DNA from: Candidatus Nomurabacteria bacterium
GTDB lineage: Bacteria; Patescibacteriota; Minisyncoccia; Phycocordibacterales; UBA9973
DNA: 64,000 bases
Assembly (NCBI GenBank): GCA_025361085.1
Contig: JANYAX010000036.1
Span: 7,208-71,207 of the forward strand
Direction of reading: 5' to 3'
Position numbers and translations under genes: made by a program. The notes under the pieces were generated by a model. The model saw only the letters and a list, made by a program, of their open reading frames with translations, had not been told where the DNA came from and did no database searches. Below are positions 2,155-63,930 of this stretch, piece by piece (position 1 is the stretch's first letter; each line of letters begins with the position of its first letter).

Positions 2155-3243
2155 ATGTCAAAAGATTATTACAATACACTTGGTGTTGACAAGAGTGCTT
2201 CGAAGGAAGAAATCAAGAAAGCATTTCACAAGCAAGCTCATAAATATCACCCCGATAAAAATAAAGGTGATGATAGTAAATTCAAGGAAGTGAATGAAGC
2301 TTACCAGGTTCTTTCTGATGACCAGAAACGTGCAAGATATGACCAATTCGGTTCTACCGATGGCCCAATGGGTGGTGGTTATGGTGGAGGTCAGCAAGGT
2401 GGATTTGGTGGATTTGACTTTTCAGGTTTTCAGAATGGTCAAGGTTTCGATATGGGAGATCTCGGAGATATTTTCGGAGATTTCTTTGGTGGCGGAATGG
2501 GGCGAGGTACAAAAAATGTACGTCGTGGAAGAGATATCCAAACTGAAATTGATTTAACTTTCGAAGAATCAGTTTTTGGCGTTAATAAGAATATTTCAAT
2601 CACTAAACAATCTACTTGCGATATTTGTAAAGGAACTGGTGGAAAAGTTGGTACGAAAATGAATACTTGTAAAACTTGTAATGGACAAGGGAAAGTGCGT
2701 GAAGTTCGTCGCTCGATACTTGGTTCATTTGAAACTACTAAAACTTGTGAGACTTGTTTAGGTTCAGGCAAAGTTTCATCAGAGAAATGTTCTAACTGTC
2801 ATGGCATAGGTGTTCTAAGAAAGCAATCAGAAATAAATATCGGCGTTCCATCTGGAATAAATGATGGGGAGATGCTAAAGATGGCAGGTGCGGGTGAAGA
2901 TATTCAAGGTGGTAAATCTGGTGATTTATATATAAAAGTAAGAGTTAAACCTCATGCAATTTATAAGCGAGATAGTCTTAATCTGACGATGGATTTGCCA
3001 ATTAAACTTACCGATGCACTTCTTGGTATGGTTTATAATTTGAAAACATTGGAAGGGAACACGATCGAAGTTAAAATTCCTGAAGGTATAAATCATAATG
3101 AATTACTTAGAGTTAGAGGCAGAGGTGTGCCATCGAGCCGTGGACGCGGTGATATAATAATTCGTATTCAAGTCAAAATGCCGACAAAACTTTCACGAAG
3201 AGAAAAAGAATTAATTGAAAAATTAAAAGAAGAAGGCCTCTAA
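2155..3243 (+). CDS. dnaJ: Chaperone DnaJ (Hsp40)
   Basis: J-domain with HPD (KYHPDKN); Gly/Phe-rich linker; four CxxCxGxG zinc-finger repeats; directly downstream of dnaK. Confidence 0.93.
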   Translation: MSKDYYNTLGVDKSASKEEIKKAFHKQAHKYHPDKNKGDDSKFKEVNEAYQVLSDDQKRARYDQFGSTDGPMGGGYGGGQQGGFGGFDFSGFQNGQGFDMGDLGDIFGDFFGGGMGRGTKNVRRGRDIQTEIDLTFEESVFGVNKNISITKQSTCDICKGTGGKVGTKMNTCKTCNGQGKVREVRRSILGSFETTKTCETCLGSGKVSSEKCSNCHGIGVLRKQSEINIGVPSGINDGEMLKMAGAGEDIQGGKSGDLYIKVRVKPHAIYKRDSLNLTMDLPIKLTDALLGMVYNLKTLEGNTIEVKIPEGINHNELLRVRGRGVPSSRGRGDIIIRIQVKMPTKLSRREKELIEKLKEEGL

Positions 3244-3245
3244 TT

Positions 3246-3276
3246 CTCCAGATAGTGGCAAGGCCACTATCTGGAG
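3246..3276. repeat. Perfect palindromic hairpin CTCCAGATAGTGG-CAAGG-CCACTATCTGGAG, 3 nt after dnaJ stop; member of a 2-copy family (second copy 20186..20218)
   Basis: 27-nt core ccagatagtggcaaggccactatctgg identical at both loci; outer stem bases differ but stay complementary (ctc/gag vs ccc/ggg); no U-tract follows. Confidence 0.6.
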
Positions 3277-3363
3277 GAGGGAAAACCTTTACTTATCGCT
3301 CATTTTTGCTATGATTGTTAATATTATTATTTATTACAGGTCGTAGACCTGATATATAAAGAG

Positions 3364-4755
3364 ATGAATAAAAGTTCTAAGGCTGCAAAGAAGCTCTGGA
3401 AAATTGGTTCTAAAGATTTCAACACTCAATATTTTGATTACAATAAAGAGGGTGATTTAATTATTAAAGAAGGACACAATATTTATAATGTTCGTTATTT
3501 GGCAGAGAAATTCGGCACTTCACTAGAAATTCTCATGCCTTTTGTTATTGAGGAGAGATTAGAAGATTTTCTAGATCTTGCCGCGGCCATATCAAAGAAA
3601 GTAGAATTTAAAGGTAAATTCTTTTATAACTACCCGATGAAGGTCAATCAAAGCAAGGAGATAGTCATGTCTGTTGTTGGTGAAGGAGCACACCTTGAAA
3701 CGTCATCATACAATGAACTTTGGATGGTTAAAAAAATGCTAGAACAAGAAAAGTTCAATCCGAACATTCGTATACTTTGTTCAGGTCCAAAAACTGATAG
3801 CTATATAAATCTTATCGATGAATTACAACATAAAGGTGTAAAAATTTTTCCTTTGATCGAAGGACCAAACGAATTAAAGTTTTTACAATATTCTAAATAT
3901 GATGTCGGTATACGTCTCGATATCCCAGTGAAAGCAAGTTCTAGATGGAATAAACCAGTAGACAGATTTGGTTTCTCAGCAAAAGAAATTTTGGACATGG
4001 GATCGTTTAAGAATTTGAAAATTCTTCACTATCATGTTGGATCGCAAATTGAAAAACTTAATGATGTTTTGATTCCGATTAAATATGCGCTTGATGTTTA
4101 CTTCAAACTCAAAGAAAAAAATCCATCGCTTGATACTCTTGATATCGGAGGAGGGATGCCGATACCTTACGAGAGAACAAAAGGTTATCCTGTCGAAAAG
4201 TTAATGGAAAGAATACTTAAATTAGTCAAAACAGAATCAGAAAAGCGCGGGCTTCCACATCCAAATTTGATTTGTGAATGGGGTAGATATATGGTTGCTC
4301 CAGCGCAAATTACAGTTTACAAAGTTATTGATACAAAAAGAATAAAACATAAAGCCAGTCCTGCCACAAAATGGTATGTTATTGATGGTAGTTTTATGAA
4401 TGATCTTCCAGACACTTGGGCCATCGATCAAAAATGGGCAATTGCTCCTGTAAATAATAAAAGAGACGGTAATCTAAATGAAGTTTGGCTTGCTGGCTCC
4501 TCCTGTGATTCTGATGATATATATAAAGGATTGAAAGAAACTCTCACCTTACCAGTATTCGATATGAACGGTGAAAATGACGGTGCTGGACCAATGTATA
4601 TTGTTGTGTTTGATACAGGTGCTTATCAGACATCTCTTGCTGCACAACATTGCATGCTATCATCACCGATGAAAATAGTGGTAGAAAATGGCCACATCGT
4701 CGTTGTAAAAAAACGTGAGTCAGCTGAAGATGTTGGTAAAACTTTCGGATGGTAA
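3364..4755 (+). CDS. PLP-dependent group IV (alanine-racemase fold) basic amino acid decarboxylase; likely arginine decarboxylase given neighbours
   Basis: 463 aa; YPMKVN PLP-lysine region, GGGMP, HYHVGSQ, EWGRY, CDSDD motifs typical of the Orn/DAP/Arg decarboxylase family. Confidence 0.7.
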   Translation: MNKSSKAAKKLWKIGSKDFNTQYFDYNKEGDLIIKEGHNIYNVRYLAEKFGTSLEILMPFVIEERLEDFLDLAAAISKKVEFKGKFFYNYPMKVNQSKEIVMSVVGEGAHLETSSYNELWMVKKMLEQEKFNPNIRILCSGPKTDSYINLIDELQHKGVKIFPLIEGPNELKFLQYSKYDVGIRLDIPVKASSRWNKPVDRFGFSAKEILDMGSFKNLKILHYHVGSQIEKLNDVLIPIKYALDVYFKLKEKNPSLDTLDIGGGMPIPYERTKGYPVEKLMERILKLVKTESEKRGLPHPNLICEWGRYMVAPAQITVYKVIDTKRIKHKASPATKWYVIDGSFMNDLPDTWAIDQKWAIAPVNNKRDGNLNEVWLAGSSCDSDDIYKGLKETLTLPVFDMNGENDGAGPMYIVVFDTGAYQTSLAAQHCMLSSPMKIVVENGHIVVVKKRESAEDVGKTFGW

Positions 4756-4796: not shown

Positions 4797-4904
4797 GGGG
4801 TAGCATTATGAAAAATTATGAGTAGGTGTGGGCGCGCCGGAGCCTCGAGTGTACTCACGAGAGGTGGAGAGGGATAAGCGAATAATTTTTCATAATGCTA
4901 CCCC
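4797..4904. repeat. GC-rich approximately 66-nt core flanked by perfect 21-bp inverted repeats (GGGGTAGCATTATGAAAAATT / AATTTTTCATAATGCTACCCC); candidate structured RNA or MITE-like element
   Basis: Inverted repeat read directly; core gagtaggtgtgggcgcgccggagcctcgagtgtactcacgagaggtggagagggataagcg is far more GC-rich than its surroundings and contains the internal hairpin CTCG-AGTGTACTCA-CGAG. Confidence 0.5.
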
Positions 4905-7647: not shown

Positions 7648-8232
7648 ATGAGAATTGCAAGAAGTGAACAGATCGCGTTTTCAAGTATACTCTTTGATTC
7701 ATTGTTTGGGCTAGTACTTTTTTTTAGTATTGATTCTATTCTTGATATAAAGAATCCGACCAGTTTGTTTTTCTATTTATTTAGTATTATTATTTTGGCT
7801 CATTGGTGGCTAATGTTTAAATCATGCGATGACGCTTATAATGAAGAAGTTACCAACTCCGCACTCGATTTAATCATCGGTGTTGTTCAATTGATATTTA
7901 TTGAGTTTATAGTACTTGCATCACGCTCATCTGACTACATTTTGGCTACAAAATTTCTATTAGCGTTATTTATAATTGATTTGTTGTGGGCAGTAATTTG
8001 GCTTTATATAGGTAAATGGAGAACAGCAGATATTTCAAAAATTCATTTAATGGAAAAAGAATTAAAGTATAACATCTTAATTGATTCAATCGCTGTTGTT
8101 TTGTTCTTGCTGTTTATGTTTTTCTTTCAGTCGTTTATGCCAATATTTTTTGTTATTGGATTTGTAATAATCTATTTAATATACATAATTCTTTCTTTTA
8201 AATATAAAATTATTGATATAGATATATTCTAA
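7648..8232 (+). CDS. Polytopic membrane protein, unknown function
   Basis: 194 aa, 4-5 hydrophobic segments; sits upstream of SET-domain gene with a 10-nt gap. Confidence 0.4.
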   Translation: MRIARSEQIAFSSILFDSLFGLVLFFSIDSILDIKNPTSLFFYLFSIIILAHWWLMFKSCDDAYNEEVTNSALDLIIGVVQLIFIEFIVLASRSSDYILATKFLLALFIIDLLWAVIWLYIGKWRTADISKIHLMEKELKYNILIDSIAVVLFLLFMFFFQSFMPIFFVIGFVIIYLIYIILSFKYKIIDIDIF

Positions 8233-8241
8233 AAAGTTAAA

Positions 8242-8706
8242 ATGAATTATAAAAAAATTCTTAATCAAGTCAAAAAAAGGCCTCGTGTTCACGGTTATAT
8301 CTCTCCCAATACTGAAACAAAATTGAGCCTAATTCATGGATTAGGGTTGTTTTCAAAGAGAGTTATAAATAAGAACGAAATAGTTGCTGTGTGGGGTGGA
8401 TGTATTGCAACAAAAAACGAGATAGAAAAATTACCCAAAGATATTGGTTACGAATATGCACTTGAGATATATCCAGGGTATTATCTTGCTGAGGTGAAAG
8501 AGTCAGAATTAGATTCTTCTGACTTTGTAAATCATTCTTGCTCACCAAACTGTAAAATTGTAAATAAATTTACAATGATATCAAAACGAAAAATTAAAAA
8601 GGGGGAAGAACTAACGTCAGATTTTTCTAACCATAAAATGAACGGGCATAATTTCTTATGTAATTGTGGTGCCAAAAATTGTAAAAAAAAGACCTTTTTT
8701 AATTAA
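8242..8706 (+). CDS. Minimal SET-domain protein (putative protein-lysine methyltransferase)
   Basis: 154 aa; GLGLFS (GxG), NHSCSPNC (NHSCxPN), EELTSDF (ELxxDY-like) and post-SET CNCGAKNC (CxCx4C) all present in canonical order. Confidence 0.7.
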   Translation: MNYKKILNQVKKRPRVHGYISPNTETKLSLIHGLGLFSKRVINKNEIVAVWGGCIATKNEIEKLPKDIGYEYALEIYPGYYLAEVKESELDSSDFVNHSCSPNCKIVNKFTMISKRKIKKGEELTSDFSNHKMNGHNFLCNCGAKNCKKKTFFN

Positions 8707-8732
8707 AAGAGTAGATATGCTATAATACATAT

Positions 8733-9656
8733 ATGTCATGGTTTTTTATTGCACTGATTGGTCCATTTCTATATGCTTTAACAAATTATATAGATAAAAT
8801 TCTTTTAGAAAAATATTTTAAAGAAAGTGGTATTGGAACTATCTTGTTGTTTTCTTCGTTGATATCTATGTTTGCGCTACCTATTTTTCTGATTATAGAT
8901 AATACAGTTTTAGATGTTAATATAATAAATATTCTCATTCTCGCATTAAAAGGGACATTGGGGGTGGGAGTATTGTGGTTTTATTTAATGGCCTTAAAAA
9001 ATGAAGAGGCTTCAGTTGTTATTGTTTTTTATCAGCTTGTGCCAGTGTTTGGAGCAATATTAGGCTATTTTTTTCTTGGTGAAATACTAACAAAAATGCA
9101 AGTAATCTCTATGGCTATAATTATTTTAGGGACAATGATTATATCATTTGAAATAGATTCAGATAATCATTTTAGATTAAGAAAGAAAAACACTATTATC
9201 CCAATGATCGGAGCCTCTTTATTTTGGGCGACAGGAGGAGTTATTTTCAAATCTGTTGCGCTTAAAGAAAACTTATGGCGGTCATTATTTTGGGAACATG
9301 TAATGTTAGTGTTAGTTGGCATAATTATTTTTATTTTTGTAAGGTCATATCGCAATAGTTTTATTTTAGCGCTAAAAAATAATTCTAAAAATATTTTATC
9401 ACTCAATATTATAAATGAATTTATATATATATCTGGAAATGTTGCTGTAGCTTATGCGTATTTACTTGCTCCAATTGGACTTGTATTACTCACAGAATCT
9501 TTTCAACCGATCTTTGTTTTAATTATTGGAGTGATTTTAACTGCTTTATTCCCTAAAATTATAACCGAAAAAATGCAAGCAAAACATCTTTGGCAGAAAG
9601 TTATTGCTATTAGTATAACGGCACTAGGTACATATCTTTTGCTTTTTTATAAATAA
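8733..9656 (+). CDS. EamA/DMT-superfamily transporter (10 TM)
   Basis: 307 aa, two repeated 5-TM halves; typical drug/metabolite transporter topology. Confidence 0.65.
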   Translation: MSWFFIALIGPFLYALTNYIDKILLEKYFKESGIGTILLFSSLISMFALPIFLIIDNTVLDVNIINILILALKGTLGVGVLWFYLMALKNEEASVVIVFYQLVPVFGAILGYFFLGEILTKMQVISMAIIILGTMIISFEIDSDNHFRLRKKNTIIPMIGASLFWATGGVIFKSVALKENLWRSLFWEHVMLVLVGIIIFIFVRSYRNSFILALKNNSKNILSLNIINEFIYISGNVAVAYAYLLAPIGLVLLTESFQPIFVLIIGVILTALFPKIITEKMQAKHLWQKVIAISITALGTYLLLFYK

Positions 9657-9667
9657 TTTTATTTATT

Positions 9668-10579
9668 ATGATTCCAGAATTTCCAAACTTTAAGAAGTTA
9701 GAATTATCTGATAAAGAAGAAATTGAAAAATTTGTATCTAATTTTCCACCTTATTCCGCTTTTAATTTTATTAATTTATTGATCTGGGATATAAAAAATA
9801 CACGTAAAATATCAAAATTAAATGATAACCTGGTAATATTTTTTACTGATTATGAGACAGATGAACCGTTTTTGTCTTTTTTGGGAAATAATAAATGCAA
9901 AGATACTATTTTAAAACTTGTTAGTTTTGCTCAAAAGGAAAAGATATCTACTAAACTTAGATTTATTACAGAAGAAATTATTTCTCAAATAAAATCTGAC
10001 AATTTAAATATTGAGGAAGATCGTGATAATTTTGATTATTTATTTTCTCCGTTTGAATTATCAAATTATACGGGAATTAAATTCAAAAAACATAGACATC
10101 TTGCCAAAAGATTTTTACAGGATTATCCAAATGCTATTTTTAAAATAGAAAATTTAAATAATGAAAAAAATAAAAATGATATTCATTCTGTATTGCGTAA
10201 ATGGGAGAATGGTAAAAAATTAGAAAATAAATTTTGTAATTTAAGTTACGAGGAGAAAGCTATTGATAACCTATTAAAAAATATTAGTGACAAAAAATTG
10301 ATTTTATCATATGTGCTTATAGATAACAAAATGATAGGATTCAGTATTGATGAAATATTACCAAATGAGGTCGTAATATCACACTTTGTTAAAGCCGATA
10401 ACTCTTTTAGGGGAATATATGAATTTTTAAATAAAAAATTAGCCAGTTATTTATTTACTTTAGGCATTAAAACATGGAATTGGCAACAAGATTTAAATAT
10501 TAAAAATTTAAGAGAGACAAAATTGGGATATAGACCTGTTTCTTTTTTAAAGAGATTTAGCGTGTCGTACAAGATTTAA
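9668..10579 (+). CDS. Hypothetical protein, possibly DUF2156-like (MprF C-terminal, GNAT-fold aminoacyl-transferase-like) domain
   Basis: 303 aa; N-terminal PPYSAFNFINLLIWD resembles the DUF2156 signature as recalled; assignment weak. Confidence 0.35.
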   Translation: MIPEFPNFKKLELSDKEEIEKFVSNFPPYSAFNFINLLIWDIKNTRKISKLNDNLVIFFTDYETDEPFLSFLGNNKCKDTILKLVSFAQKEKISTKLRFITEEIISQIKSDNLNIEEDRDNFDYLFSPFELSNYTGIKFKKHRHLAKRFLQDYPNAIFKIENLNNEKNKNDIHSVLRKWENGKKLENKFCNLSYEEKAIDNLLKNISDKKLILSYVLIDNKMIGFSIDEILPNEVVISHFVKADNSFRGIYEFLNKKLASYLFTLGIKTWNWQQDLNIKNLRETKLGYRPVSFLKRFSVSYKI

Positions 10580-10602
10580 GGAATATTGAAAAACAATATT
10601 TT

Positions 10603-10998
10603 ATGATGTATAATAGAAAGTACAATTATATGAAAACCAAACAACATTTTTATAATCATATATTTTTTTACATAATATCTTTTTTCCTTTTAGTGACAAT
10701 ATTTAATTCTTTCTATCGTTTTATTATTAAAAATGATTATATCGTTTATTATGAAGATAAATGTGATCCTTACACGGAGTCATGTTTTATGTCTTGTGAA
10801 GCAGACAGTTGTATTTATTATAAAAAGATACAAAAATATGCTTTAAATGTTTATACTGAATGTGGTAATAATATCACAAATTGTTACCAAGCAAGTGTTT
10901 GTTTAAAAAATGATAAAAATTGTTCTATAACATATTGCAATTTAAATATAGATTCTAATTGTGAATTTATTAATAATAGTCGTATCCAAAATAATTAA
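10603..10998 (+). CDS. Signal-anchored Cys-rich (12 Cys) secreted/surface protein
   Basis: N-terminal TM followed by Cys-rich domain; no family recognised. Confidence 0.35.
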   Translation: MMYNRKYNYMKTKQHFYNHIFFYIISFFLLVTIFNSFYRFIIKNDYIVYYEDKCDPYTESCFMSCEADSCIYYKKIQKYALNVYTECGNNITNCYQASVCLKNDKNCSITYCNLNIDSNCEFINNSRIQNN

Positions 10999-11022
10999 TT
11001 ACTAGCATAAAGAATAAATAAC

Positions 11023-12711
11023 ATGATTTGCTATTCATTTACAGAGCCACTTTATTTAATTTTTTCACCAGATCTTCCAGCATTATTTTATTATTCGCAT
11101 ATAGTTACAGCTATAGTTGCTATTTTTGTTGGTTTTTTTGTTTTAAAAAGTGGTAAAAAACTTTTACTAAATCGATTATTATTCGCCATTTCAATCTGTT
11201 TTTTCTTTTGGGTGGTTTCAAATATTATCTTGTGGACAAATATTCATAGTAATATTATGTTGTTTGTTTGGTCACTTCTTAGAATACTCTCTTCCATGAT
11301 GTCTATTTTGAGTATTTATTTTTTGTATGTTTTTTTAGAAAAAAAAGATATTTCCTTTTTTTTAAAAGGAATTTTTCTCGTTCTTATATTACCAGTTATA
11401 ATACTTGCTCCGACATATATTAATTTGAGCGGATTTAATCTTGCAACTTGTGATGCTTTTATGTTTGAAGGGGGTCTATTCCAATTCTATCGCGTTGCTT
11501 TTGGGATATTAGCGATGTTATGGATTTTAATTTTATTAATAAGAAGATATCACAAAGCAGATGTTAATTTTAAGAAACAAATATTACTTGTGGGTGTGGG
11601 CATTGAATTATTTTTGTTATCTTTTTTTATTGTGACATTTTTAGCAGCTTATTTTACTAAAATCGGATTACTTCCTGATTCTAGATTAGAATATTATGGG
11701 TTATTCGGAATAATTATTTTTGTAATATATTTGAGTATTCTTACTGTTAAATTTGGAGCTTTTAATATTAAATTATTGGCAAGTCAAGCATTAGTTTGGG
11801 GACTTGTGATATTAATTGGGGCACAATTCTTTTTTATAAAAATCACAGCTAATTTTGTCTTGAATGGAATAGCTTTTATTGGGATATTGATTGCTGGTCC
11901 ATTTCTTATAAAATCTGTAAAAAAAGAGGTTAATCAGCGAGAATTATTGGAATCATTGACGTTGAAACTCGAACAGTCAAATTCAAATTTTGCTGAAGCT
12001 AATGAAAAATTGAAAGGGTTGGATAAATTGAAAACAGAATTCGTTTCGCTCGCTTCTCATCAGTTGCGCAGTCCACTTACTGCTATTAAGGGTTACATTT
12101 CTATGTTGATCGAGGGAGATTATGGAGAAATTAATCCTAAAGCAAAAGAAATCGTTGATAGGGTTGCAGAATCAAGTAACAATCTAACACTCGTTGTTGA
12201 AGACCTGCTTAATGTTTCCAAAATTGAATCTGGTGGAATGAAATATGACATGGTTAAATTTGATTTTAGCGAACTTGTAAATAATACGGCAAAAGATTTG
12301 TCTATTACCGCTGAAAAGAAAGGGCTAAAACTTACTCATAAAATCGATATGAGCCATCAATACTTTGTGGATGGTGATAAAGAGAAACTAAGACAAGTTT
12401 TGATCAATTTGATTGACAATTCGATGAAGTATACTGAAAAAGGTAAGATCGAATTAGATTTGGATAATCAAGATGGCAAAATCACTTTGTCTGTCAAAGA
12501 TACAGGGGCAGGGGTTGACCCTGAGGTCGAAGATACAATTTTTGAGAAATTCTCAAGAGGTGAAGGTGCGAAGTTGAACGCTTCTGGGTCTGGACTTGGG
12601 CTTTACTTAGTTAAAGAAATAGTTGAAGCTCACCACGGGCGAGTCTGGGTGGAATCTCTTGGTGTGGGTAAGGGCTCAACATTCTTTGTGGAATTGAACG
12701 AAGTAAAATAA
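11023..12711 (+). CDS. Sensor histidine kinase with multi-TM N-terminal sensor domain
   Basis: 562 aa; 7-8 TM N-terminus, coiled coil, H-box SHQLRSPLTAIKGY, N/G1/G2 boxes (DNSMKY, DTGAGV, GSGLGL). Confidence 0.85.
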   Translation: MICYSFTEPLYLIFSPDLPALFYYSHIVTAIVAIFVGFFVLKSGKKLLLNRLLFAISICFFFWVVSNIILWTNIHSNIMLFVWSLLRILSSMMSILSIYFLYVFLEKKDISFFLKGIFLVLILPVIILAPTYINLSGFNLATCDAFMFEGGLFQFYRVAFGILAMLWILILLIRRYHKADVNFKKQILLVGVGIELFLLSFFIVTFLAAYFTKIGLLPDSRLEYYGLFGIIIFVIYLSILTVKFGAFNIKLLASQALVWGLVILIGAQFFFIKITANFVLNGIAFIGILIAGPFLIKSVKKEVNQRELLESLTLKLEQSNSNFAEANEKLKGLDKLKTEFVSLASHQLRSPLTAIKGYISMLIEGDYGEINPKAKEIVDRVAESSNNLTLVVEDLLNVSKIESGGMKYDMVKFDFSELVNNTAKDLSITAEKKGLKLTHKIDMSHQYFVDGDKEKLRQVLINLIDNSMKYTEKGKIELDLDNQDGKITLSVKDTGAGVDPEVEDTIFEKFSRGEGAKLNASGSGLGLYLVKEIVEAHHGRVWVESLGVGKGSTFFVELNEVK

Positions 12712-28005: not shown

Positions 28006-29280
28006 ATGAGAAAATTGATATTTTATATTATTTTAATAGCAATTATCGTCGCCTTTTTACCTGGTCAAGTTAAAGCTTTGACGGCAGAACAGGTACGCCA
28101 GCAAATCGAAGATACAAACAATCAAATCGACGCTCTTGATAAAGAGATAAAGCAATATCAATCACAAATATCTGAGACGAGTGCTCAATCAAACACGCTC
28201 GCAAATTTAATAAAAGAATTAACTCTTACTCGAAATAAGTTAATAGCAGAGAGAACACAAATACAGAAAAAAATTACAGCAACGGGTTTAGTAATCGAAA
28301 CACTCATAGGCGACATTAGTGACAAAGAAAAATCTATAGCGATTTTAAAACAATCTTTCAGTAAAATGATTAATGATCTTAATCAAAATGACAACACCTC
28401 GATTATTGAACGCCTTTTGACGATTGGAAATTTCTCTGACTTCAGTTATGACTATAACAATTTACTTACTCTTAATGAAAAAATTAAAGAGAATATAAAA
28501 AATATTTCCGAAGAAAAAGCACAATTACTTACTTCCAAAACAGAAAAGGAAGGCGAAAAACAAAATCTAGATACTCTCAAACAAAATCTAGTTCAAAAAG
28601 AGCAAGTAGTAGCGATTACAAAGAAAGAGAAAGATACATTATTTACAGAAACAAAAAACAAAGAAGCCGAGTACAAAAAACTTTTAGCTGAGAAAGAAAA
28701 AATTAAAGAATCTTTCGAGAAAGTTCTAGAAGATTACGAATCAAAACTTAAATTTATTCTAAACCCAAAACTTTTACCAAAAGAAGGTTCTGGGGTACTA
28801 TCTTGGCCACTCGACTATATTTTAGTCACATCTCCATATGGCTCAAGGTGGGGTAAATTCCACTATGGAATGGATTTCAGAGCCTCAGTTGGAACAAATG
28901 TCATGTCGATGGCTTCAGGAACGGTCATGGGCACTGGTGATACCGATATCGATTGTAAAAGTGCATCTTTTGGTAAATGGGTGTTCATTAAATATGATAA
29001 TGGACTTTCGAGTACATATGGGCACTTGTCGGTAATATCTACCAAGAAAGGACAAGTCGTAAAAACCGGTGACATCGTAGCACTTTCTGGAAATACTGGT
29101 TCATCAATGGGACCTCATTTACATGTAGCTGTTTACGCATCTGATGGAGTCAAAGTAGATACTGTTCCAAGTAAAAGTTGTAATGGAAAAATATTTACTC
29201 AACCGATAGCCGCGCTAACTGCATATCTTGACCCAACATTATATTTACCTAAAATTACGTCGGATATGATTAAAAAATAA
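28006..29280 (+). CDS. M23-family murein endopeptidase with N-terminal signal and long coiled coil (EnvC-like)
   Basis: 424 aa; HYGMDF and GPHLHVAVY metal-binding motifs in the C-terminal LytM domain. Confidence 0.8.
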   Translation: MRKLIFYIILIAIIVAFLPGQVKALTAEQVRQQIEDTNNQIDALDKEIKQYQSQISETSAQSNTLANLIKELTLTRNKLIAERTQIQKKITATGLVIETLIGDISDKEKSIAILKQSFSKMINDLNQNDNTSIIERLLTIGNFSDFSYDYNNLLTLNEKIKENIKNISEEKAQLLTSKTEKEGEKQNLDTLKQNLVQKEQVVAITKKEKDTLFTETKNKEAEYKKLLAEKEKIKESFEKVLEDYESKLKFILNPKLLPKEGSGVLSWPLDYILVTSPYGSRWGKFHYGMDFRASVGTNVMSMASGTVMGTGDTDIDCKSASFGKWVFIKYDNGLSSTYGHLSVISTKKGQVVKTGDIVALSGNTGSSMGPHLHVAVYASDGVKVDTVPSKSCNGKIFTQPIAALTAYLDPTLYLPKITSDMIKK

Positions 29281-55107: not shown

Positions 55108-55392
55108 ATGGAGAATCAACAACAAAAAGATCATGACCTACTAATTAAAATAAGCACAGTGCTTGATGGGTTAGTAAATGATGTCAAAGATATTAAAACC
55201 AACACAGTTGGACGTATTGAGGATCTAGAAGTTTCAAGGGCCACAAAAGATGAATTAAAAAATGTTAGTGACAAAGTTGAAAATATAGAAAAAAAACAAG
55301 TTTCAAACGACACATATCTTAAACTTGCTGTCGCTCTTGGAGCATTAATTTTGAGTGTCTTAGTCTGGCACTTAACAGGTTACAAAATATAA
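55108..55392 (+). CDS. XhlA-like coiled-coil membrane protein (lysis-associated)
   Basis: 94 aa; coiled coil followed by single C-terminal TM, as in the PBSX XhlA family; precedes lysin. Confidence 0.4.
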   Translation: MENQQQKDHDLLIKISTVLDGLVNDVKDIKTNTVGRIEDLEVSRATKDELKNVSDKVENIEKKQVSNDTYLKLAVALGALILSVLVWHLTGYKI

Positions 55393-55399
55393 AAAATGT

Positions 55400-56551
55400 A
55401 TGGATACACAATATAAATTAGGAGCAAAAAAAGACCATGACGATTTGAGAAATATTCCTCTTGTTGCGGTACAAGCACCACTTCCAAAAGGATCTATCCC
55501 ATCGAAGTATATGACCGATGTTTCAATGATTCCGATACTCAATCAGAATCAAATCGGTGCATGTGTCGGACACGCAAAAGCAACTGTTCTATGTTATTTA
55601 AACTGGAAAGAGACAGGAAACATCATTTATCTTTCTCCTCGATTCTTGTATGCACTCGCAAAGGCTATCGACAATAATCCAAACGAGGGAACATATCCGG
55701 CTATTGTGGCCAAGATTGCAAAAGATATGGGATGTCCTACAACAAAGACAGTACCAAATGATACGCTTTTATCTCACAAGGACTACATAAATATCACAGT
55801 CACAGATGCAATCAAAGAGGATGCATACCCATTCAGGACTGGAGGATACGCAACTGTGAATGGAGGGATAGCAGACGCTCTTAAAAATGCCATTGTGCAA
55901 AATGGTGTTATTGATGTGACTATCTCAGTTGGAAATTATACAAGTCCAATGAGAAAAGGTACTGATGGACTTCATAGAATCGTCCTTTATGGTTTTGATG
56001 GAGATACTTTTTACTTCATCAATAGTTGGGGAGAATCTTGGGGAGATAAAGGAAAAGGATATTTTTATTTCAAGCAGCAAGAAGTAACAGATGCACTTGC
56101 AACAGTAGATATTCCAAACGAAATATTAAAAAAAGTGCAATCACTTCCTACTGCTGTGCTCACTCGCCAACCATCTACAAAGACAGAGACACTGGGTGAA
56201 ATGGTGGCCACATACAACGGACTATCAAAGACATTTAAAACACTCGAAAGACCAGACTTAGGAAACAAGCCAAACATCTCATGTATTCCAAAAGGAAAAT
56301 ATGTCTGCAAGAGAATCTTCTCATTAAAGTTTTTGGGCTATGTCTATCAATTACAGAACGTCACTGGACGCTCTGGCATTTATATTCATGCCGGTAACTA
56401 TTACAGAGATGTACAAGGATGCATCATCTTGGGTAGTGCTTTCTCTGACATCGATAGAGACGGAAACTTGGATGTGATCAATTCAAAGATCTCATGCAAA
56501 GCGTTGTTTGATTTTTTCAACAATCAATCATTCACGCTCATTATTAAATAG
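55400..56551 (+). CDS. Putative endolysin: papain-like (peptidase C1-like) domain fused to a YkuD (L,D-transpeptidase-fold) C-terminal domain
   Basis: NQIGACVGHA (Cys region), GLHRIVLYGFD (His) and INSWGESWGDKGKGYF (NSWG..WG..GY) papain hallmarks; C-terminal IYIHAGNYYRDVQGCIILG resembles the YkuD H..G....GCI motif. Confidence 0.55.
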   Translation: MDTQYKLGAKKDHDDLRNIPLVAVQAPLPKGSIPSKYMTDVSMIPILNQNQIGACVGHAKATVLCYLNWKETGNIIYLSPRFLYALAKAIDNNPNEGTYPAIVAKIAKDMGCPTTKTVPNDTLLSHKDYINITVTDAIKEDAYPFRTGGYATVNGGIADALKNAIVQNGVIDVTISVGNYTSPMRKGTDGLHRIVLYGFDGDTFYFINSWGESWGDKGKGYFYFKQQEVTDALATVDIPNEILKKVQSLPTAVLTRQPSTKTETLGEMVATYNGLSKTFKTLERPDLGNKPNISCIPKGKYVCKRIFSLKFLGYVYQLQNVTGRSGIYIHAGNYYRDVQGCIILGSAFSDIDRDGNLDVINSKISCKALFDFFNNQSFTLIIK

Positions 56552-56584: not shown

Positions 56585-56776
56585 ATGAACATCATAAGTA
56601 AATCAGCAAGTAAGTTTGTTTTTGTAACAATGACACTAGCATTAATTGCAGCATTGTTCACAGGTAAAATTTCTGGGGAGCAGTTCATGTCACTAGCAAC
56701 AATGACATTCGCTTTCTATTTTGGGACTCGTGCCAAGAGTGATACACAAGACACGACAACTACGGTGGCGAAGTAA
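56585..56776 (+). CDS. Holin-like 2-TM protein
   Basis: 63 aa, two hydrophobic segments, charged C-terminus; between two cell-wall hydrolases. Confidence 0.4.
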   Translation: MNIISKSASKFVFVTMTLALIAALFTGKISGEQFMSLATMTFAFYFGTRAKSDTQDTTTTVAK

Positions 56777-56810
56777 GCCAACATTTTTGTGGTTTCAAAA
56801 ACCACGCACC

Positions 56811-57302
56811 ATGAAAAAAATATATATAGCAGTCAGCACTTTGTTCATCACAGGAATGATCATCGCATTCTCGGTCCCATCAGTTACTAAAGTTGAAATA
56901 CCATACGACGATAGAGCAGATAGGATTGATTCTTATTTCAAGAGTAAGGGAATGCCACTCGCAGGATACGGTCATGAATTTGTAGAACAAGCGGACAAGA
57001 ACGGAATTGATTGGAGACTATTACCGGCAATATCAATCAAGGAGCAATCCGGTGGTCTACGCAAACCATATAACTGTCCTAACAAGACAATTAATTATAA
57101 CTGGTTTGGATGGGCAAGTGCACGAATATGTTTTCATTCGATAGATGAGGCAATTAAAACAGTCTCGGAAAATCTCGGGGGAAACAATCCAAGAACGCAA
57201 TCATATTATAAAGGTGACACAAGAGAGAAATTGCATTCATACAATGGGACAGTAGATCCAAAGTATCCAAGTGCAGTGATTGAAATTATGGAGAAGTTTT
57301 GA
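56811..57302 (+). CDS. Signal-anchored GH73-like N-acetylglucosaminidase
   Basis: Start trimmed to MKKIYIA; AISIKEQSGG and NYNWFGW resemble the GH73 ESGWG and NYNLFG motifs. Confidence 0.45.
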   Translation: MKKIYIAVSTLFITGMIIAFSVPSVTKVEIPYDDRADRIDSYFKSKGMPLAGYGHEFVEQADKNGIDWRLLPAISIKEQSGGLRKPYNCPNKTINYNWFGWASARICFHSIDEAIKTVSENLGGNNPRTQSYYKGDTREKLHSYNGTVDPKYPSAVIEIMEKF

Positions 57303-57336
57303 AAGCAGGTCCGCGGAAATTACGCGGACCAATATC

Positions 57337-57405
57337 GCGGGTTAGTGTAATGGTCGCACGTTTGGCTCATGCCCAAACGGACTCGGTTCGATTCCGAGGC
57401 CCGCA
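57337..57405 (+). tRNA. tRNA-like element, anticodon CAU (Met/Ile2-type), non-canonical acceptor/D junction; preceded by hairpin GGTCCGCG-gaaatta-CGCGGACC (57308..57330)
   Basis: D-stem GTGT/GCAC, anticodon stem TTTGG/CCAAA with loop CUCAUGC, T-arm CTCGG-TTCGATT-CCGAG, acceptor GCGGG/CCCGC; only one nucleotide between acceptor and D stem. Confidence 0.35.
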
Positions 57406-57439
57406 ACAAGTAATGTTCTTTAAAAGAAAGGAGACCAAT

Positions 57440-57664
57440 ATGGCAAGGAATGATCCGGAACAAGTCACACGCCATCACATCATCCCATCATCTAGGATAC
57501 AAGGAAAACCTATAACTGGGATCTGCAAAGTTAAGCGATGGCTGCATGAACTGTATCACAATCTTTTTGGTAATATGACACCGTACGAAATAGGCCAGTG
57601 GCTCAATGAGACATTTTGGAACTGTGAGTATGAGATCACTATTAGAAGAAAGAGAAATTTTTAA
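57440..57664 (+). CDS. Small His-rich protein (possible His-Me finger/HNH-like)
   Basis: 74 aa; strong RBS AAAGGAG 7 nt upstream; RHHIIP..WLHELYH pattern; track ORF 57299.. trimmed because its 5' part is the tRNA-like element. Confidence 0.35.
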   Translation: MARNDPEQVTRHHIIPSSRIQGKPITGICKVKRWLHELYHNLFGNMTPYEIGQWLNETFWNCEYEITIRRKRNF

Positions 57665-57760: not shown

Positions 57761-58225
57761 ATGAGTGAACAAACAATCAAAAAAGAAAGTGGTCTCACAT
57801 TCAAGAAAGGTTTTTTAAATAGTTTCAGAGGCAGTCTTGTTTTAACATCATCAGAATTATATTTTGAATCAAAAGATAAGAAAGTTTTCAGTGTTTTAAT
57901 CAGTGACATTGAAAATTCTAGAGCTAAAAAGGGAATCGGAAATGGCCTTGATTATTTAGTTATTGAATACAAAGAGGATGGCAAGTCAAAGAAAACAGAA
58001 TTCGAGCACATGGCTTTTGTCAGTGGTCTTGCTATGGGTAATATGTCACAACTCCGAGAGACTTATTTTAAGTCGTGGGAAACAATCATCGAAGAAACAC
58101 GCATGGGCAAAAACAAAAAAGCTAGTGGATTGGATGATATAGAAAAACTCGCAGATCTAAAAGCCAAAGGTCACATTACAGAGGCAGAATACGAAGCAAA
58201 GAAAAAACAAATTTTAGGATTATAA
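57761..58225 (+). CDS. Bacterial PH-like (GRAM/YokE-type) domain protein with C-terminal SHOCT motif
   Basis: 154 aa; C-terminus DIEKLADLKAKGHITEAEYEAKKKQILGL fits the SHOCT pattern. Confidence 0.45.
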   Translation: MSEQTIKKESGLTFKKGFLNSFRGSLVLTSSELYFESKDKKVFSVLISDIENSRAKKGIGNGLDYLVIEYKEDGKSKKTEFEHMAFVSGLAMGNMSQLRETYFKSWETIIEETRMGKNKKASGLDDIEKLADLKAKGHITEAEYEAKKKQILGL

Positions 58226-58247: not shown

Positions 58248-58802
58248 ATGAATGAAAATATAAAAATAAAAAAGTGTCCTCATTGTATAAAAGAAGTAGA
58301 TGTTGAAGCCAGTCGTTGTCCTCATTGTCAGGGTAAAATCTTTGTATGGACTAGGGGAAGAAAAATTCTAGCAGGATTTATTATCTTTACAGTCTTTATT
58401 TTGGTTATTTCTGGTAGCTCAAACAGCAACAAAACACCTACAACATCATCGAATACAACATCAAATACGGTCACAGCGACAGGTCCACAACTTGAACTGC
58501 TTAGCTACAACTGCGACAAAGAATATGGATATTTTACAATTAGCGGACAGGTTAAAAATATAAGTGGTAATTCTTTGAAGAATGTGACGGCCGTTGGATC
58601 TACTTATGCCAAAGACAAAACATTTATAAATTCAGAATCTACTTTGATTGAATACAACCCAATTCTTCCAAATCAAACATCTCCGTTTAAAGTAATGATG
58701 ACAGAGAATCCACAAATGAGTAAGTGTAATGTTGATTTTAAGTATTTGATTGGTGGAAGTATAGAATTTAAAGATAGTAGCAACGTAGTTACTAAAAAAT
58801 AA
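58248..58802 (+). CDS. Zinc-ribbon, single-TM, Ser/Thr-linker, beta-rich ectodomain membrane protein (candidate superinfection-exclusion/moron)
   Basis: 184 aa; CPHC..CPHC ribbon, TM, STTSSNTTSNT linker; located next to the integrase. Confidence 0.4.
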   Translation: MNENIKIKKCPHCIKEVDVEASRCPHCQGKIFVWTRGRKILAGFIIFTVFILVISGSSNSNKTPTTSSNTTSNTVTATGPQLELLSYNCDKEYGYFTISGQVKNISGNSLKNVTAVGSTYAKDKTFINSESTLIEYNPILPNQTSPFKVMMTENPQMSKCNVDFKYLIGGSIEFKDSSNVVTKK

Positions 58803-59012: not shown

Positions 59013-60077
59013 TTGGATGTATACTATAACTATCTCTGTCAAGTACAGAGTAGCAATTCCGCAAGGAGTTACGCACAAGTCCATCGAGTAGCATCGATGG
59101 ATTTCGTGTTTATGAAATTTGACGATGCAATAGAAAAGTTTACGAATTGGAGACAATTCAAAGTGTGCGGAGAAACGGTAAAAAGGTACGACAAAGTGCT
59201 ACGCATTTTTTGTTTGTATCTACATAATCCGGATATAGAAAAAATAACGGTCGACCAAGTATTAAAATATCTAGGAGAGATGCAAACACTTGGATGGAAA
59301 AAGAATGGATTAAATATTGTTTGTATTGGGTTGAGAAAATTCTTTGAGTTTTATGAGATGCAAGGCTATAAAGTTATCAAAGCTGAATTAGTCCCAATAC
59401 TTAAAAAAGAATTTAAACTTCCGAGAATTGCGACGGAGGATGGATATGATGCTCTGCTTGAACAATTTCCTGCAGACTCAAACGATCCGCACCACATCCG
59501 CAATCGTGCCATCGCTATGCTCTTGTGGGATACAGGAGCCAGAAATGGAGAGATATTATCGCTCGATGTCGATGATCTAAACTTAGAAGAAAGGAAAGCA
59601 ATAATCAAAACAGAGAAGTCGCGAGGACGTAGACCAATTCGCGAAATATTCTGGCAAGAAAAAACAAACAAGGCTCTCAAAAATTGGATTGAGAAAAGAA
59701 AATATTTGATGAACATTATGAAGTTTCAAGACCAGAACGCTCTATTTATTTCAATTGCAACGTGTAATAAAAGTGTAAGGGGTGGAAGATTAAAAGTTTG
59801 TGGACTAGCAGAGATTTTGAGGACTGCATCGAATAGGGCAGGGATTCCAACTTTGAATGCTCACTCAATGAGACATTTTATGGGAAGAAGTATTATTGAA
59901 CAGGGAGGCTCAAACTCCGATGTTTCAAATATTCTTGGTCACTCATCCATGGACTCATCATGGATATATACGATGATGGCCGGACCGCAATTGCAAAAAC
60001 GATGGTCACATTTTAAAGAGGTAGCCGTCAAAGCTGTCACCGTAAAAACAGGGCGGTTCGGGAAGATGAGAATATAG
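59013..60077 (+). CDS. int: Tyrosine recombinase / phage integrase
   Basis: 354 aa; catalytic R..HxxR..Y signature (ARNGE, HSMRHF, LGHSS..WIYT); adjacent to attR; true start may be an internal Met near 59097. Confidence 0.85.
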   Translation: MDVYYNYLCQVQSSNSARSYAQVHRVASMDFVFMKFDDAIEKFTNWRQFKVCGETVKRYDKVLRIFCLYLHNPDIEKITVDQVLKYLGEMQTLGWKKNGLNIVCIGLRKFFEFYEMQGYKVIKAELVPILKKEFKLPRIATEDGYDALLEQFPADSNDPHHIRNRAIAMLLWDTGARNGEILSLDVDDLNLEERKAIIKTEKSRGRRPIREIFWQEKTNKALKNWIEKRKYLMNIMKFQDQNALFISIATCNKSVRGGRLKVCGLAEILRTASNRAGIPTLNAHSMRHFMGRSIIEQGGSNSDVSNILGHSSMDSSWIYTMMAGPQLQKRWSHFKEVAVKAVTVKTGRFGKMRI

Positions 60078-62069: not shown

Positions 62070-62906
62070 ATGGAAATGCTAAGTGACAAAAAAGTTAAAG
62101 AGTTAAAAATAAAAGCGAAAAATATTCGCGCTAGTATCATCGAAATGCTCGCCGAAGCTGGTAGTGGGCACACAGCCGGCGCGCTCGGGATGGCAGATAT
62201 TTTCGCCTTACTTTATTTTCATACATTAAAACACGACCCCAAAAATCCACTGATGGAAAGTAGAGATAGATTGGTATTGTCGAATGGTCATATTTGCCCT
62301 GTCTTGTATGCAACCATGGCCGAAGCTGGATATTTTCCTAAAGAAGAATTACTCACTTTACGTAAATTTGGGTCACGATTGCAAGGCCACCCACACCGTG
62401 AATATATGCCGTGGCTCGAGACATCATCTGGTCCACTTGGTTCAGGACTTTCACAAGCTGTCGGTATGGCAATTTCAGAAAAAATTTACGGCGGAATAAA
62501 AAATATATATGCAATTCTTTCAGATGGCGAACACGACGAAGGTAATACTTGGGAAGCGATAATGCTTGCAGGTAAAGAGAAACTCGCAAATCTAATTGTG
62601 ATAGTAGATCGAAATCATATTCAAATAAGTGGCAATACCGAGCGCATTATGCCACTCGGTGATTTGAAACAAAAATACAAAGATTTCGGGTGGAACATTT
62701 TTGAAGTTGATGGTCATGATTTCTGGCAAGTAAACAATGCTATTTTTCTTGCAAACAGAAACAAAGTTTCTCCATCAGTCATCATAGCAAATACTATTCC
62801 TGGCAAAGGTGTCAAAGAATGGGAACAAGATTATCATTGGCATGGCAAAGCACCAACCAAAGAAGAAGCCGAATCTGCATTAGAAAAACTAGAACCTAGC
62901 CACTAG
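62070..62906 (+). CDS. Transketolase, N-terminal (TPP pyrophosphate-binding) subunit
   Basis: 278 aa; GHTAGALGMADI, GDGEHDEGNTWEA TPP-binding motif; split tkt arrangement. Confidence 0.85.
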   Translation: MEMLSDKKVKELKIKAKNIRASIIEMLAEAGSGHTAGALGMADIFALLYFHTLKHDPKNPLMESRDRLVLSNGHICPVLYATMAEAGYFPKEELLTLRKFGSRLQGHPHREYMPWLETSSGPLGSGLSQAVGMAISEKIYGGIKNIYAILSDGEHDEGNTWEAIMLAGKEKLANLIVIVDRNHIQISGNTERIMPLGDLKQKYKDFGWNIFEVDGHDFWQVNNAIFLANRNKVSPSVIIANTIPGKGVKEWEQDYHWHGKAPTKEEAESALEKLEPSH

Positions 62907-62925: not shown

Positions 62926-63930
62926 ATGCTAAATCAAAAATTAAAATTAAATACAAAAGTGTTCAATAGAGATGTTGAGAAAGTATCTACTCGCCAAGGT
63001 TTTGGTGAAGGTCTTCTCCAGATTGGAGTTTCGAATGAAAATGTTGTTGCACTATCGGCTGACCTCAAAGAATCGACAAAAGTAGATCTTTTTGCTGAGA
63101 AATTTCCCGATAGATACATCGAGCTAGGAGTAGCTGAACAAAATCTCGCAAGCGTTGCAAGTGGAATCGCTTCCATGGGTAAAATTCCATTTATCGCTTC
63201 ATATGGCATATTTAATCCGGGCCGTAATTGGGAACAAATTCGCACCACGATATGTTACAACAATCAACCCGTAAAAATTATCGGCTCACACACTGGGCTC
63301 TCAGTAGGCCAAGACGGGGGGTCACACCAAATGCTTGAAGATATTGCACTCACACGATCGATACCAAACATGGTTGTTATCTCACCATGCGACTCTATCG
63401 AGGCTAAAAAGGCGACAATCGCATGTGCAAAAACAAAAGACCCTACATATATACGACTCGCAAGAAATAATACTCCGATAATTACAACCGCAGATACTCC
63501 ATTCGAAATAGGAAAAGCCGGACTAGTTTTTGTTCCTGAAATCGGGCTGGCTCACGTTGGGATAATCGCGACAGGGACGATTTTATATAAAGCTATAATG
63601 GCTGCACATGAACTTGAAAAGAAAGGGATCAAAGTAAAAGTTTTAAATTTATCTACAATAAAACCACTAGATACTGAAGCGATAATTTCACTTGCAAGAG
63701 AAACTCGCGCCATTGTGACCGCAGAAGATCACCAGATTGCCGGAGGTATGGGTAGTGCAGTTTCGGAATGTATTGCACAAGAATATCCGATCCCGATTGA
63801 ATTTGTTGGAGTAGATGATGAATTTGGCCAATCAGGCATACCAGAAGAACTCGAAAAACACTACGGAATCGACACAGAGAGTATCATAAAAAGAGTAGAG
63901 AAAGTATTAAAAAGAAAAACCGCTAAATAG
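62926..63930 (+). CDS. Transketolase, C-terminal (pyrimidine-binding) subunit
   Basis: 334 aa; pyrimidine-binding and C-terminal domains. Confidence 0.85.
   Translation: MLNQKLKLNTKVFNRDVEKVSTRQGFGEGLLQIGVSNENVVALSADLKESTKVDLFAEKFPDRYIELGVAEQNLASVASGIASMGKIPFIASYGIFNPGRNWEQIRTTICYNNQPVKIIGSHTGLSVGQDGGSHQMLEDIALTRSIPNMVVISPCDSIEAKKATIACAKTKDPTYIRLARNNTPIITTADTPFEIGKAGLVFVPEIGLAHVGIIATGTILYKAIMAAHELEKKGIKVKVLNLSTIKPLDTEAIISLARETRAIVTAEDHQIAGGMGSAVSECIAQEYPIPIEFVGVDDEFGQSGIPEELEKHYGIDTESIIKRVEKVLKRKTAK

Follow-up and report, generated by a model that had tools for sequence, protein, structure and literature searches.

A putative endolysin joining papain-type and DUF5675 domains in a prophage of a Candidatus Nomurabacteria chromosome

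This study concerns one gene in 64,000 nucleotides of DNA from a Candidatus Nomurabacteria bacterium; the whole of this stretch is referred to as the window. The gene encodes a protein of 383 residues, called the lysin here, in which an N-terminal papain-type (C1A) cysteine-peptidase domain is followed by a C-terminal domain of the Pfam family DUF5675 that has the fold of the L,D-transpeptidase YkuD. The protein is probably a holin-dependent prophage endolysin with two thiol-peptidase active sites that cut the peptide part of peptidoglycan. A preliminary description of the DNA had interpreted the gene as encoding a two-domain lysin, papain-like C1 plus YkuD-like fold, and this interpretation is supported overall. 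The open reading frame (ORF) runs exactly as given there, and a check of the codons found all the quoted motifs, at residues 51-59 (containing Cys55), 190-200 (His192), 208-222 (Asn208 and Trp210) and 327-345 (His330 and Cys341). The AlphaFold2 model of the full-length protein is highly confident, with a predicted local distance difference test score (pLDDT) of 95.3 and a predicted template modelling score of 0.89. A hydropathy scan of the lysin revealed neither a signal peptide nor a transmembrane (TM) segment, a search of NCBIfam gave no match, and the protein has no separate wall-binding domain of the SH3b, LysM or PG_binding type.

The papain-type domain and its partners

The N-terminal domain is a genuine member of the papain family, more than a distant thiol-peptidase fold, because its Pfam match, its alignments with proteins of known structure, its conserved catalytic set and the confident full-length model all agree. 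The Peptidase_C1 profile (PF00112) matches above its gathering score (34.9 versus 20.7 bits, E 2.2e-8) over profile positions 14-206 of 220, and the domain has the two lobes of the papain fold. Sequence matches in the PDB were ervatamin, cathepsin K, ficin and chymopapain, with E values between 1e-6 and 1e-3. In the HMMER alignments Cys55 falls on the equivalent of Cys25 in cathepsin K, and Gln49, His192 and the Asn-Ser-Trp stretch fall on the corresponding catalytic residues of cathepsin K and ervatamin. The papain triad that the preliminary description had recognized from its sequence context is confirmed by these alignments and by conservation, as Gln49, Cys55, His192, Asn208, Ser209, Trp210 and Trp214 are invariant across an alignment of 20 relatives. 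A set of 118-150 representatives (up to 50% identity) likewise shows no exception for the Cys, and conservation of 90% or more for the Gln, His, Asn and Trp.

Neither an I29-type propeptide nor a secretion signal or TM segment was found in the C1 domain, where about 42 residues precede the catalytic region. Propeptides of the I29 type and secretion signals are typical of eukaryotic C1A enzymes and are not needed in the short bacterial type; their absence here agrees with the short xylellain-type C1A enzymes described in PMC10380794. The domain is neutral in charge and contains three Cys residues only. Its 42-residue N-terminal segment is conserved, with Gly8, Asp15 and Arg17 invariant. The short pro-region of xylellain reportedly sits in the active-site cleft, and by analogy it is possible that this segment could fill the cleft of the C1 domain, which would make the lysin latent. 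Xylellain itself (Xylella fastidiosa, PDB 3ois; MEROPS C1A, PF00112) has about 20% sequence identity to the C1 domain. It differs from the lysin in that the C1 domain here lacks a secretion signal and is joined to a second peptidase domain, and the partners found in the present family are all peptidoglycan modules, which points to the wall, not a protein, as the substrate.

The case for a wall substrate is built mainly on these partners. A HMMER search with residues 1-244 against 1.84 billion representatives returned 1,822 proteins at E <= 1e-3, of which 371 reach E <= 1e-10 and 58 reach E <= 1e-30. The C1 domain is nearly always N-terminal in them, with 100-250 residues after it. In the best 118 relatives, 88 of which match PF00112 at E <= 1e-3, the partners recognized by Pfam are PG_binding_1 (72 proteins), Peptidase_M15_3 (16), DUF5675 (7), PG_binding_3 (7), Peptidase_M15_4 (6), VanY (5), Phage_lysozyme (4), SLT (4), SLT_3 (3), GH108 (2) and Amidase_3 (1). 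All of them bind or cleave peptidoglycan, except for an intein in one member, and in most of these proteins the C1 domain is the sole catalytic module. It is for these two reasons that the C1 domain is taken to act on the wall. The evidence for a peptidoglycan-cleaving activity is indirect for the N-terminal domain, coming from its fusion partners, and for the C-terminal domain it comes from a fold that matches known peptidoglycan L,D-carboxypeptidases.

Cwp84 is the C1A protease that processes the S-layer of Clostridioides. By analogy, the C1 domain could be a protease for a protein target, either an S-layer or envelope protein of the host, a Candidate Phyla Radiation (CPR) member, or a phage protein, with DUF5675 alone cutting peptidoglycan. 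This is improbable, since 72 of the 118 relatives join C1 solely to PG_binding_1, which is the classic endolysin layout of one catalytic and one wall-binding domain, no protein-directed partner domain was recognized in the 118, the intein being the sole other partner, and the genes of C1 lysins occupy lysis-cassette positions.

The intein is an observation in its own right. Two relatives from outside the window, P0129 (716 residues) and P0211 (713 residues), contain an intein of about 350 residues with a LAGLIDADG homing endonuclease. It is inserted exactly at the equivalent of Cys55 (55562-55564 in the window), the junctions reading NQMRNGS/CFLPGT and AVHN/CVGHA, and therefore the nucleophile is the +1 extein residue. 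Judging from the insertion point, these two lysins should be inactive before splicing. We know of no description of an intein in the active site of a phage lysin.

The DUF5675 domain

The C-terminal domain belongs to DUF5675 (PF18925): over profile positions 2-110 of 114 it scores 83.8 bits (E 1e-23), where the gathering score is 26.7. In PHROGs it matches phrog_1501, of unknown function, at E 1.2e-21. An alignment of 18 DUF5675 domains, in which the domain position plus 244 gives the full-length numbering, has as invariant residues Arg256, Glu283, Asn289, Ser294, Tyr301, Arg324, His330, Gly340-Cys341-Ile342 and Gly345. The model of the domain (pLDDT 92.6) has the beta-sandwich fold of YkuD. 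His330 lies at the end of a beta strand and Cys341 at the start of the next, the same order as in YkuD, and the two form the candidate catalytic dyad.

The relation to YkuD was less clear at the level of sequence. The preliminary description had called the domain YkuD-like, and this stands for the fold and the dyad but fails for the family profile and the canonical motif. The YkuD profile (PF03734, MEROPS C82, a family of L,D-transpeptidases) gave no match to the window protein at E <= 1. When the 18 DUF5675 domains were scanned with Pfam, 8 had a Tlde1_dom match (at best E 0.0014) and 2 a YkuD match (E 0.019), both below threshold; the alignment shown for the domain of the lysin (domain residues 73-102) covers the His-Cys segment. 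DUF5675 is by its sequence a family separate from YkuD proper, and the fold together with the weak Tlde1 and YkuD matches suggests the relation between them.

Known enzymes with this fold offer further comparisons. Csd6 of Helicobacter pylori (4xzz) and Pgp2 of Campylobacter jejuni (6xj7) are L,D-carboxypeptidases with 12-13% identity to the DUF5675 domain, and no relation was found between them and DUF5675 at the level of hidden Markov models (HMMs). Both are enzymes of cell shape in the periplasm and carry additional domains. DUF5675 has a shorter His-Cys spacing and no (S/T)H before the GC. The Tlde1 effectors of type VI secretion (Tlde1a, 7uma; PF10908) retain the SHGC motif and have a capping subdomain and disulfides; they are delivered by the secretion system into the periplasm of rivals and also exchange D-amino acids. 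The His-Cys spacing of 11 in DUF5675 is close to the 10 of Tlde1a (H121-C131). A further precedent is LysPd160, a DUF5675 protein that a 2026 preprint links structurally to C82, proposing the name "C82-like" (bioRxiv 10.64898/2026.04.11.717860). LysPd160 and the C-terminal domain of the lysin belong to one Pfam family and are tied to C82 by the same kind of structural comparison. LysPd160 comes from oral-microbiome phages and not from a CPR prophage, and the passages of the preprint that were available mention neither a C1 fusion nor activity data for it.

Several results weigh against two active sites or against the endolysin assignment. A PDB search with the profile of the 18 DUF5675 domains found no YkuD protein. 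The hhalign comparison with the catalytic domain of Bacillus subtilis YkuD (a query 100% identical to 2mtz_A) was not significant (probability 0.5%), and the sole stretch aligned in it was Gly-Cys341-Ile over the Gly-Cys-Ile of YkuD (SKGCIRM). The canonical L,D-transpeptidase motif is H-x(14-17)-(S/T)-H-G-C-h (PMC9638812). DUF5675 retains its His and its Gly-Cys-hydrophobic part, but the His-Cys spacing is 11 instead of 14-17, and the (S/T)-His before Gly-Cys is not conserved, the two preceding positions being variable in the 18 domains. DUF5675 also fills the C-terminal slot that a wall-binding domain holds in most relatives, and its catalytic contribution may be small. The holin assignments discussed below were made from size, hydrophobicity and position only, and no characterized endolysin with a PF00112 domain was found in the searchable literature.

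It is conceivable that the lysin has one active site, that of C1, and that DUF5675 mainly binds stem peptides and targets the enzyme to the wall, with little or no catalysis. In about two thirds of the relatives the slot of DUF5675 is taken by PG_binding_1 or PG_binding_3, the domain is strongly basic (isoelectric point 9.35, net charge +7) next to a neutral N-terminal domain, the second His of the L,D-transpeptidase motif is missing, and DUF5675 also follows other putative peptidase domains as the C-terminal part. However, a pure binding module would not need His330 and Cys341, which are invariant in 18 of 18 domains. DUF5675 also stands alone, at about 130 residues, in many phages and in a microvirus with six genes, and the same C-terminal slot holds clearly catalytic M15, lysozyme and amidase domains in other proteins. 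An enzyme with a single active site is therefore unlikely, though less so than a protein target for C1, and the reading with two active sites is preferred.

The stand-alone form was found in more than 100 phages (of Vibrio, Cellulophaga, Ralstonia and others) and is always annotated as hypothetical. In Vibrio phage PJ32 the DUF5675 gene adjoins a gene for a TM protein. The microvirus is Apis mellifera associated microvirus 8 (MH992181.1), complete at 4,893 nucleotides, in which the DUF5675 gene (3009-3419) is the only non-core one of six genes; this suggests that DUF5675 alone could be its lysis enzyme. Five further proteins of 309-327 residues (P0047, P0048, P0050, P0051 and P0053) join DUF5675 to an unannotated N-terminal domain of about 180 residues with an HExxH motif (for example NHEMFH or VHELMH). 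This N-terminal domain has no significant match in Pfam and is possibly a zinc peptidase.

Directly after Cys341 lies a DxDxDG-type loop, with the family consensus DINKDGxxD, in which D354 and D358 are conserved in 90% or more of the 18 domains. The pattern makes it a possible Ca2+ site. The loop probably also accounts for the weak FG-GAP and Dockerin matches, each of which Pfam gave for a single family member.

The lysis cassette and the proposed mechanism

The gene order around the lysin is tail fibre, gp94, lysin, gp63, gp163 and tRNA-Met, with gp94, gp63 and gp163 named after their lengths in residues (Table 1). The gp94 gene stops 7 nucleotides upstream of the lysin start. The gp94 protein has no family match in Pfam or PHROGs and is a candidate holin or lysis regulator. 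The gp63 protein matches phrog_13256, of unknown function, at E 2.4e-8 and is a candidate holin. The Glucosaminidase profile (PF01832) matches gp163 at E 0.0012-0.0019, below its gathering score, and gp163 may from its sequence be a second, glycosidic wall hydrolase.

Table 1. Positions in the window of the lysin gene, its domains and motifs, and the neighbouring and prophage features
Feature	Position	Strand	Remarks
Lysin gene	55400-56551	+	ORF starting with ATG, 383 residues
Papain-type domain (C1A, xylellain-type)	55400-56143	+	residues 1-248
Peptidase_C1 (PF00112) match	55526-56083	+	residues 43-228
Gln49 to Cys55	55544-55564	+	Gln49 (oxyanion hole) 55544-55546; Cys55 (nucleophile) 55562-55564; motif NQNQIGACVGHA
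His192, Asn208, Trp210	55973-56029	+	remainder of papain catalytic set; His192 55973-55975, Asn208 56021-56023, Trp210 56027-56029
DUF5675 domain, YkuD (L,D-transpeptidase) fold	56147-56548	+	residues 250-383
DUF5675 (PF18925) match	56159-56512	+	residues 254-371
His330 to Cys341	56387-56422	+	candidate catalytic dyad; His330 56387-56389, Cys341 56420-56422; motif IH-AGNYYRDVQ-GCI
DxDxDG-type loop (DIDRDGNLD)	56447-56473	+	residues 350-358; D350-I-D352-R-D354-G355-N-L-D358
gp94	55108-55392	+	94 residues; coiled-coil-like N-terminus, C-terminal TM segment at residues 68-92 (hydropathy scan)
gp63	56585-56776	+	63 residues; strong TM segment at residues 7-30 and a second, weaker hydrophobic stretch (hydropathy scan)
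gp163	56811-57302	+	163 residues; ATG at 56811 within the mechanical ORF 56721-57302; N-terminal signal-anchor at residues 3-26
Prophage	about 33 to 60.6 kb		YqaJ exonuclease, replisome organiser, portal, capsid, tail tube, tail, baseplate, glycine-rich tail fibre and integrase genes
Integrase	59013-60077		
Host genes left of the prophage			DnaK, aminoacyl-tRNA synthetases, DnaB, GatB, GAPDH
Host genes right of the prophage			RpiB, ribulose-phosphate epimerase, split transketolase

A similar arrangement is found in related phages. In six metagenomic phage contigs the relatives of the lysin follow tail genes, the same position as here. Five of the six encode a small protein with a TM segment and a coiled coil upstream of the lysin, and four encode small membrane proteins, having one to three TM segments, downstream of it. 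Two of the contigs (L086 and L087) have a small SLT-domain protein after the lysin, in the slot of gp163, with no sequence similarity between these proteins and gp163. Because the relatives keep the position after the tail genes and the flanking small membrane proteins, the region is regarded, on gene order and sequence features, as a lysis cassette. The lysin gene lies in the late region beside holin-like membrane proteins.

The position directly after the tail-fibre and baseplate genes would also suit a virion-associated lysin that opens the wall for entry of the DNA, and in Ralstonia jumbo phages DUF5675 does occur within proteins of more than 1,200 residues, probably components of the virion. 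The lysin has no structural or tail-attachment domain, though, and its gene lies between those of small membrane proteins in the last part of the late operon, ahead of the lysogeny module. Moreover, the prophage holds no other endolysin candidate of comparable strength, only the weakly glucosaminidase-like gp163. A role in entry is the most remote of the alternatives and very unlikely.

In the proposed mechanism for the endolysin, the lysin would be made without a signal peptide and remain cytoplasmic until gp94 and gp63, the candidate holins, permeabilise the membrane and give it access to the wall. At the C1 site Cys55 would be the nucleophile, His192 the base and Asn208 the residue that orients the His, with Gln49 in the oxyanion hole, and the site may cut an amide bond in the stem peptide or the cross-bridge. 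In DUF5675, Cys341 and His330 would act on the L-centre of residue 3, giving a thioester that is resolved by water, so that hydrolysis rather than transpeptidation would be expected. By analogy with Csd6, Pgp2 and Tlde1, the domain would be an L,D-carboxypeptidase or L,D-endopeptidase that cleaves either the residue 3 to D-Ala bond or 3-3 cross-links. As the domain is basic, it probably also helps to anchor the enzyme to the wall. The folds, the conserved residues, the prophage setting and the fusion partners are results of the analysis; lysis, the holin roles, the bonds cut and hydrolysis in place of transpeptidation are inferred.

Bifunctional endolysins, which combine two catalytic domains, are well established, for example the CHAP plus amidase enzymes of staphylococcal phages. 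Like them, the lysin has two putative independent wall-cleaving modules, would be released by a holin and has modules that are shuffled among relatives. Both of its modules, by contrast, are cysteine peptidases of families that have no established place among the catalytic domains of lysins. The combination of C1 with DUF5675 is rare, being found in 7 clusters among 5.8 billion proteins, in 3 contigs of IMG/VR (L088-L090) and in none of 50,697 GenBank phage records. Each half has a close relative in another architecture: the N-terminal domain is 56% identical to that of a C1 plus M15_3 protein (P0008), and the C-terminal domain is 57% identical to that of a protein with an unknown N-terminal domain and DUF5675 (P0041). 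The lysin is therefore a recent module shuffle. A profile scan of the genome contigs with the lysin alignment found no relative and missed the source genome as well. A homology search restricted to a single domain yielded four proteins only.

The preliminary description had also suggested a novel lysin architecture. The combination is indeed rare and its occurrence in a CPR prophage is new, but modular endolysins are known and both modules were already catalogued. Xylellain-type C1A genes have been listed in tailed phages (PMC10380794), proteins with C1 and PG_binding domains are present in UniProt and BFVD under names such as "Peptidoglycan binding-like", and the preprint cited above had already proposed DUF5675 as a C82-like lysin domain. 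What is new is thus the rare combination of modules in a CPR prophage, while the kind of protein is known, and no concept is changed by it. On balance, we lean towards the view that xylellain-type C1A domains are an unrecognized catalytic class of endolysins that cut peptidoglycan peptides and that one of them is joined here to DUF5675. If C1 does cleave peptidoglycan, a family known only for cutting proteins would join the catalytic domains of lysins, and roughly 370 representatives, mostly fused to peptidoglycan-binding domains, would become candidate enzymes. The CPR prophage would then lyse its host by two thiol peptidases, without a conventional amidase or muramidase domain, and in the intein-bearing relatives the lysin would be kept inactive until spliced. 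DUF5675, which occurs widely in phages as a hypothetical protein, has recently been proposed to be a wall L,D-peptidase, and the present case supports this. The case would further provide a concrete lysis cassette from a phage of CPR bacteria, a group in which envelopes and phages have hardly been studied; a search of the literature for lysins of CPR phages found nothing.

The prophage and the host chromosome

The gene content shows that the window is bacterial chromosome with an integrated prophage. The boundaries of the prophage were drawn from gene content alone. Direct repeats of attachment sites were sought at both ends and gave chance-like pairs only, and therefore the limits rest on the genes. 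When 24 kb of the prophage were compared with GenBank phages by megablast, nothing matched. The DnaK of the host is 88-93% identical to those of metagenome-assembled genomes of Candidatus Nomurabacteria/Paceibacteria, and for this reason the host, which is uncultured, is assigned to the Patescibacteria (CPR). The best explanation is a temperate tailed phage in a Paceibacteria/Nomurabacteria chromosome.

The tRNA-Met gene (57336-57407, + strand) is within the prophage, where the lysis cassette precedes it and the integrase module follows, and is overlapped by a mechanical ORF (57299-57664). It is either phage-borne or the marker of an old attachment site. Between it and the integrase are genes for a SHOCT-domain protein (57761-58225, + strand) and, at 58248-58802 (+ strand), a zinc-ribbon protein with a single TM segment; both may be "moron" genes expressed during lysogeny.

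Among the host genes, one (28006-29280, + strand) encodes a protein with a coiled-coil N-terminus and a Peptidase_M23 domain, a layout like that of EnvC, so the CPR host owns conventional wall-remodelling enzymes. The host stretch at about 8000-12000 has a G+C content of 25-27%, compared with 35-39% elsewhere. Genes for a SET-domain protein (8242-8706), an EamA transporter (8733-9656) and an LPG_synthase_C-like protein (9668-10579) lie in it, and a histidine kinase gene (11023-12711) is next to them. The transketolase to the right of the prophage is encoded by two genes on the + strand, one for the N-terminal half (62070-62906) and one for the pyrimidine-binding and C-terminal half (62926-63930).
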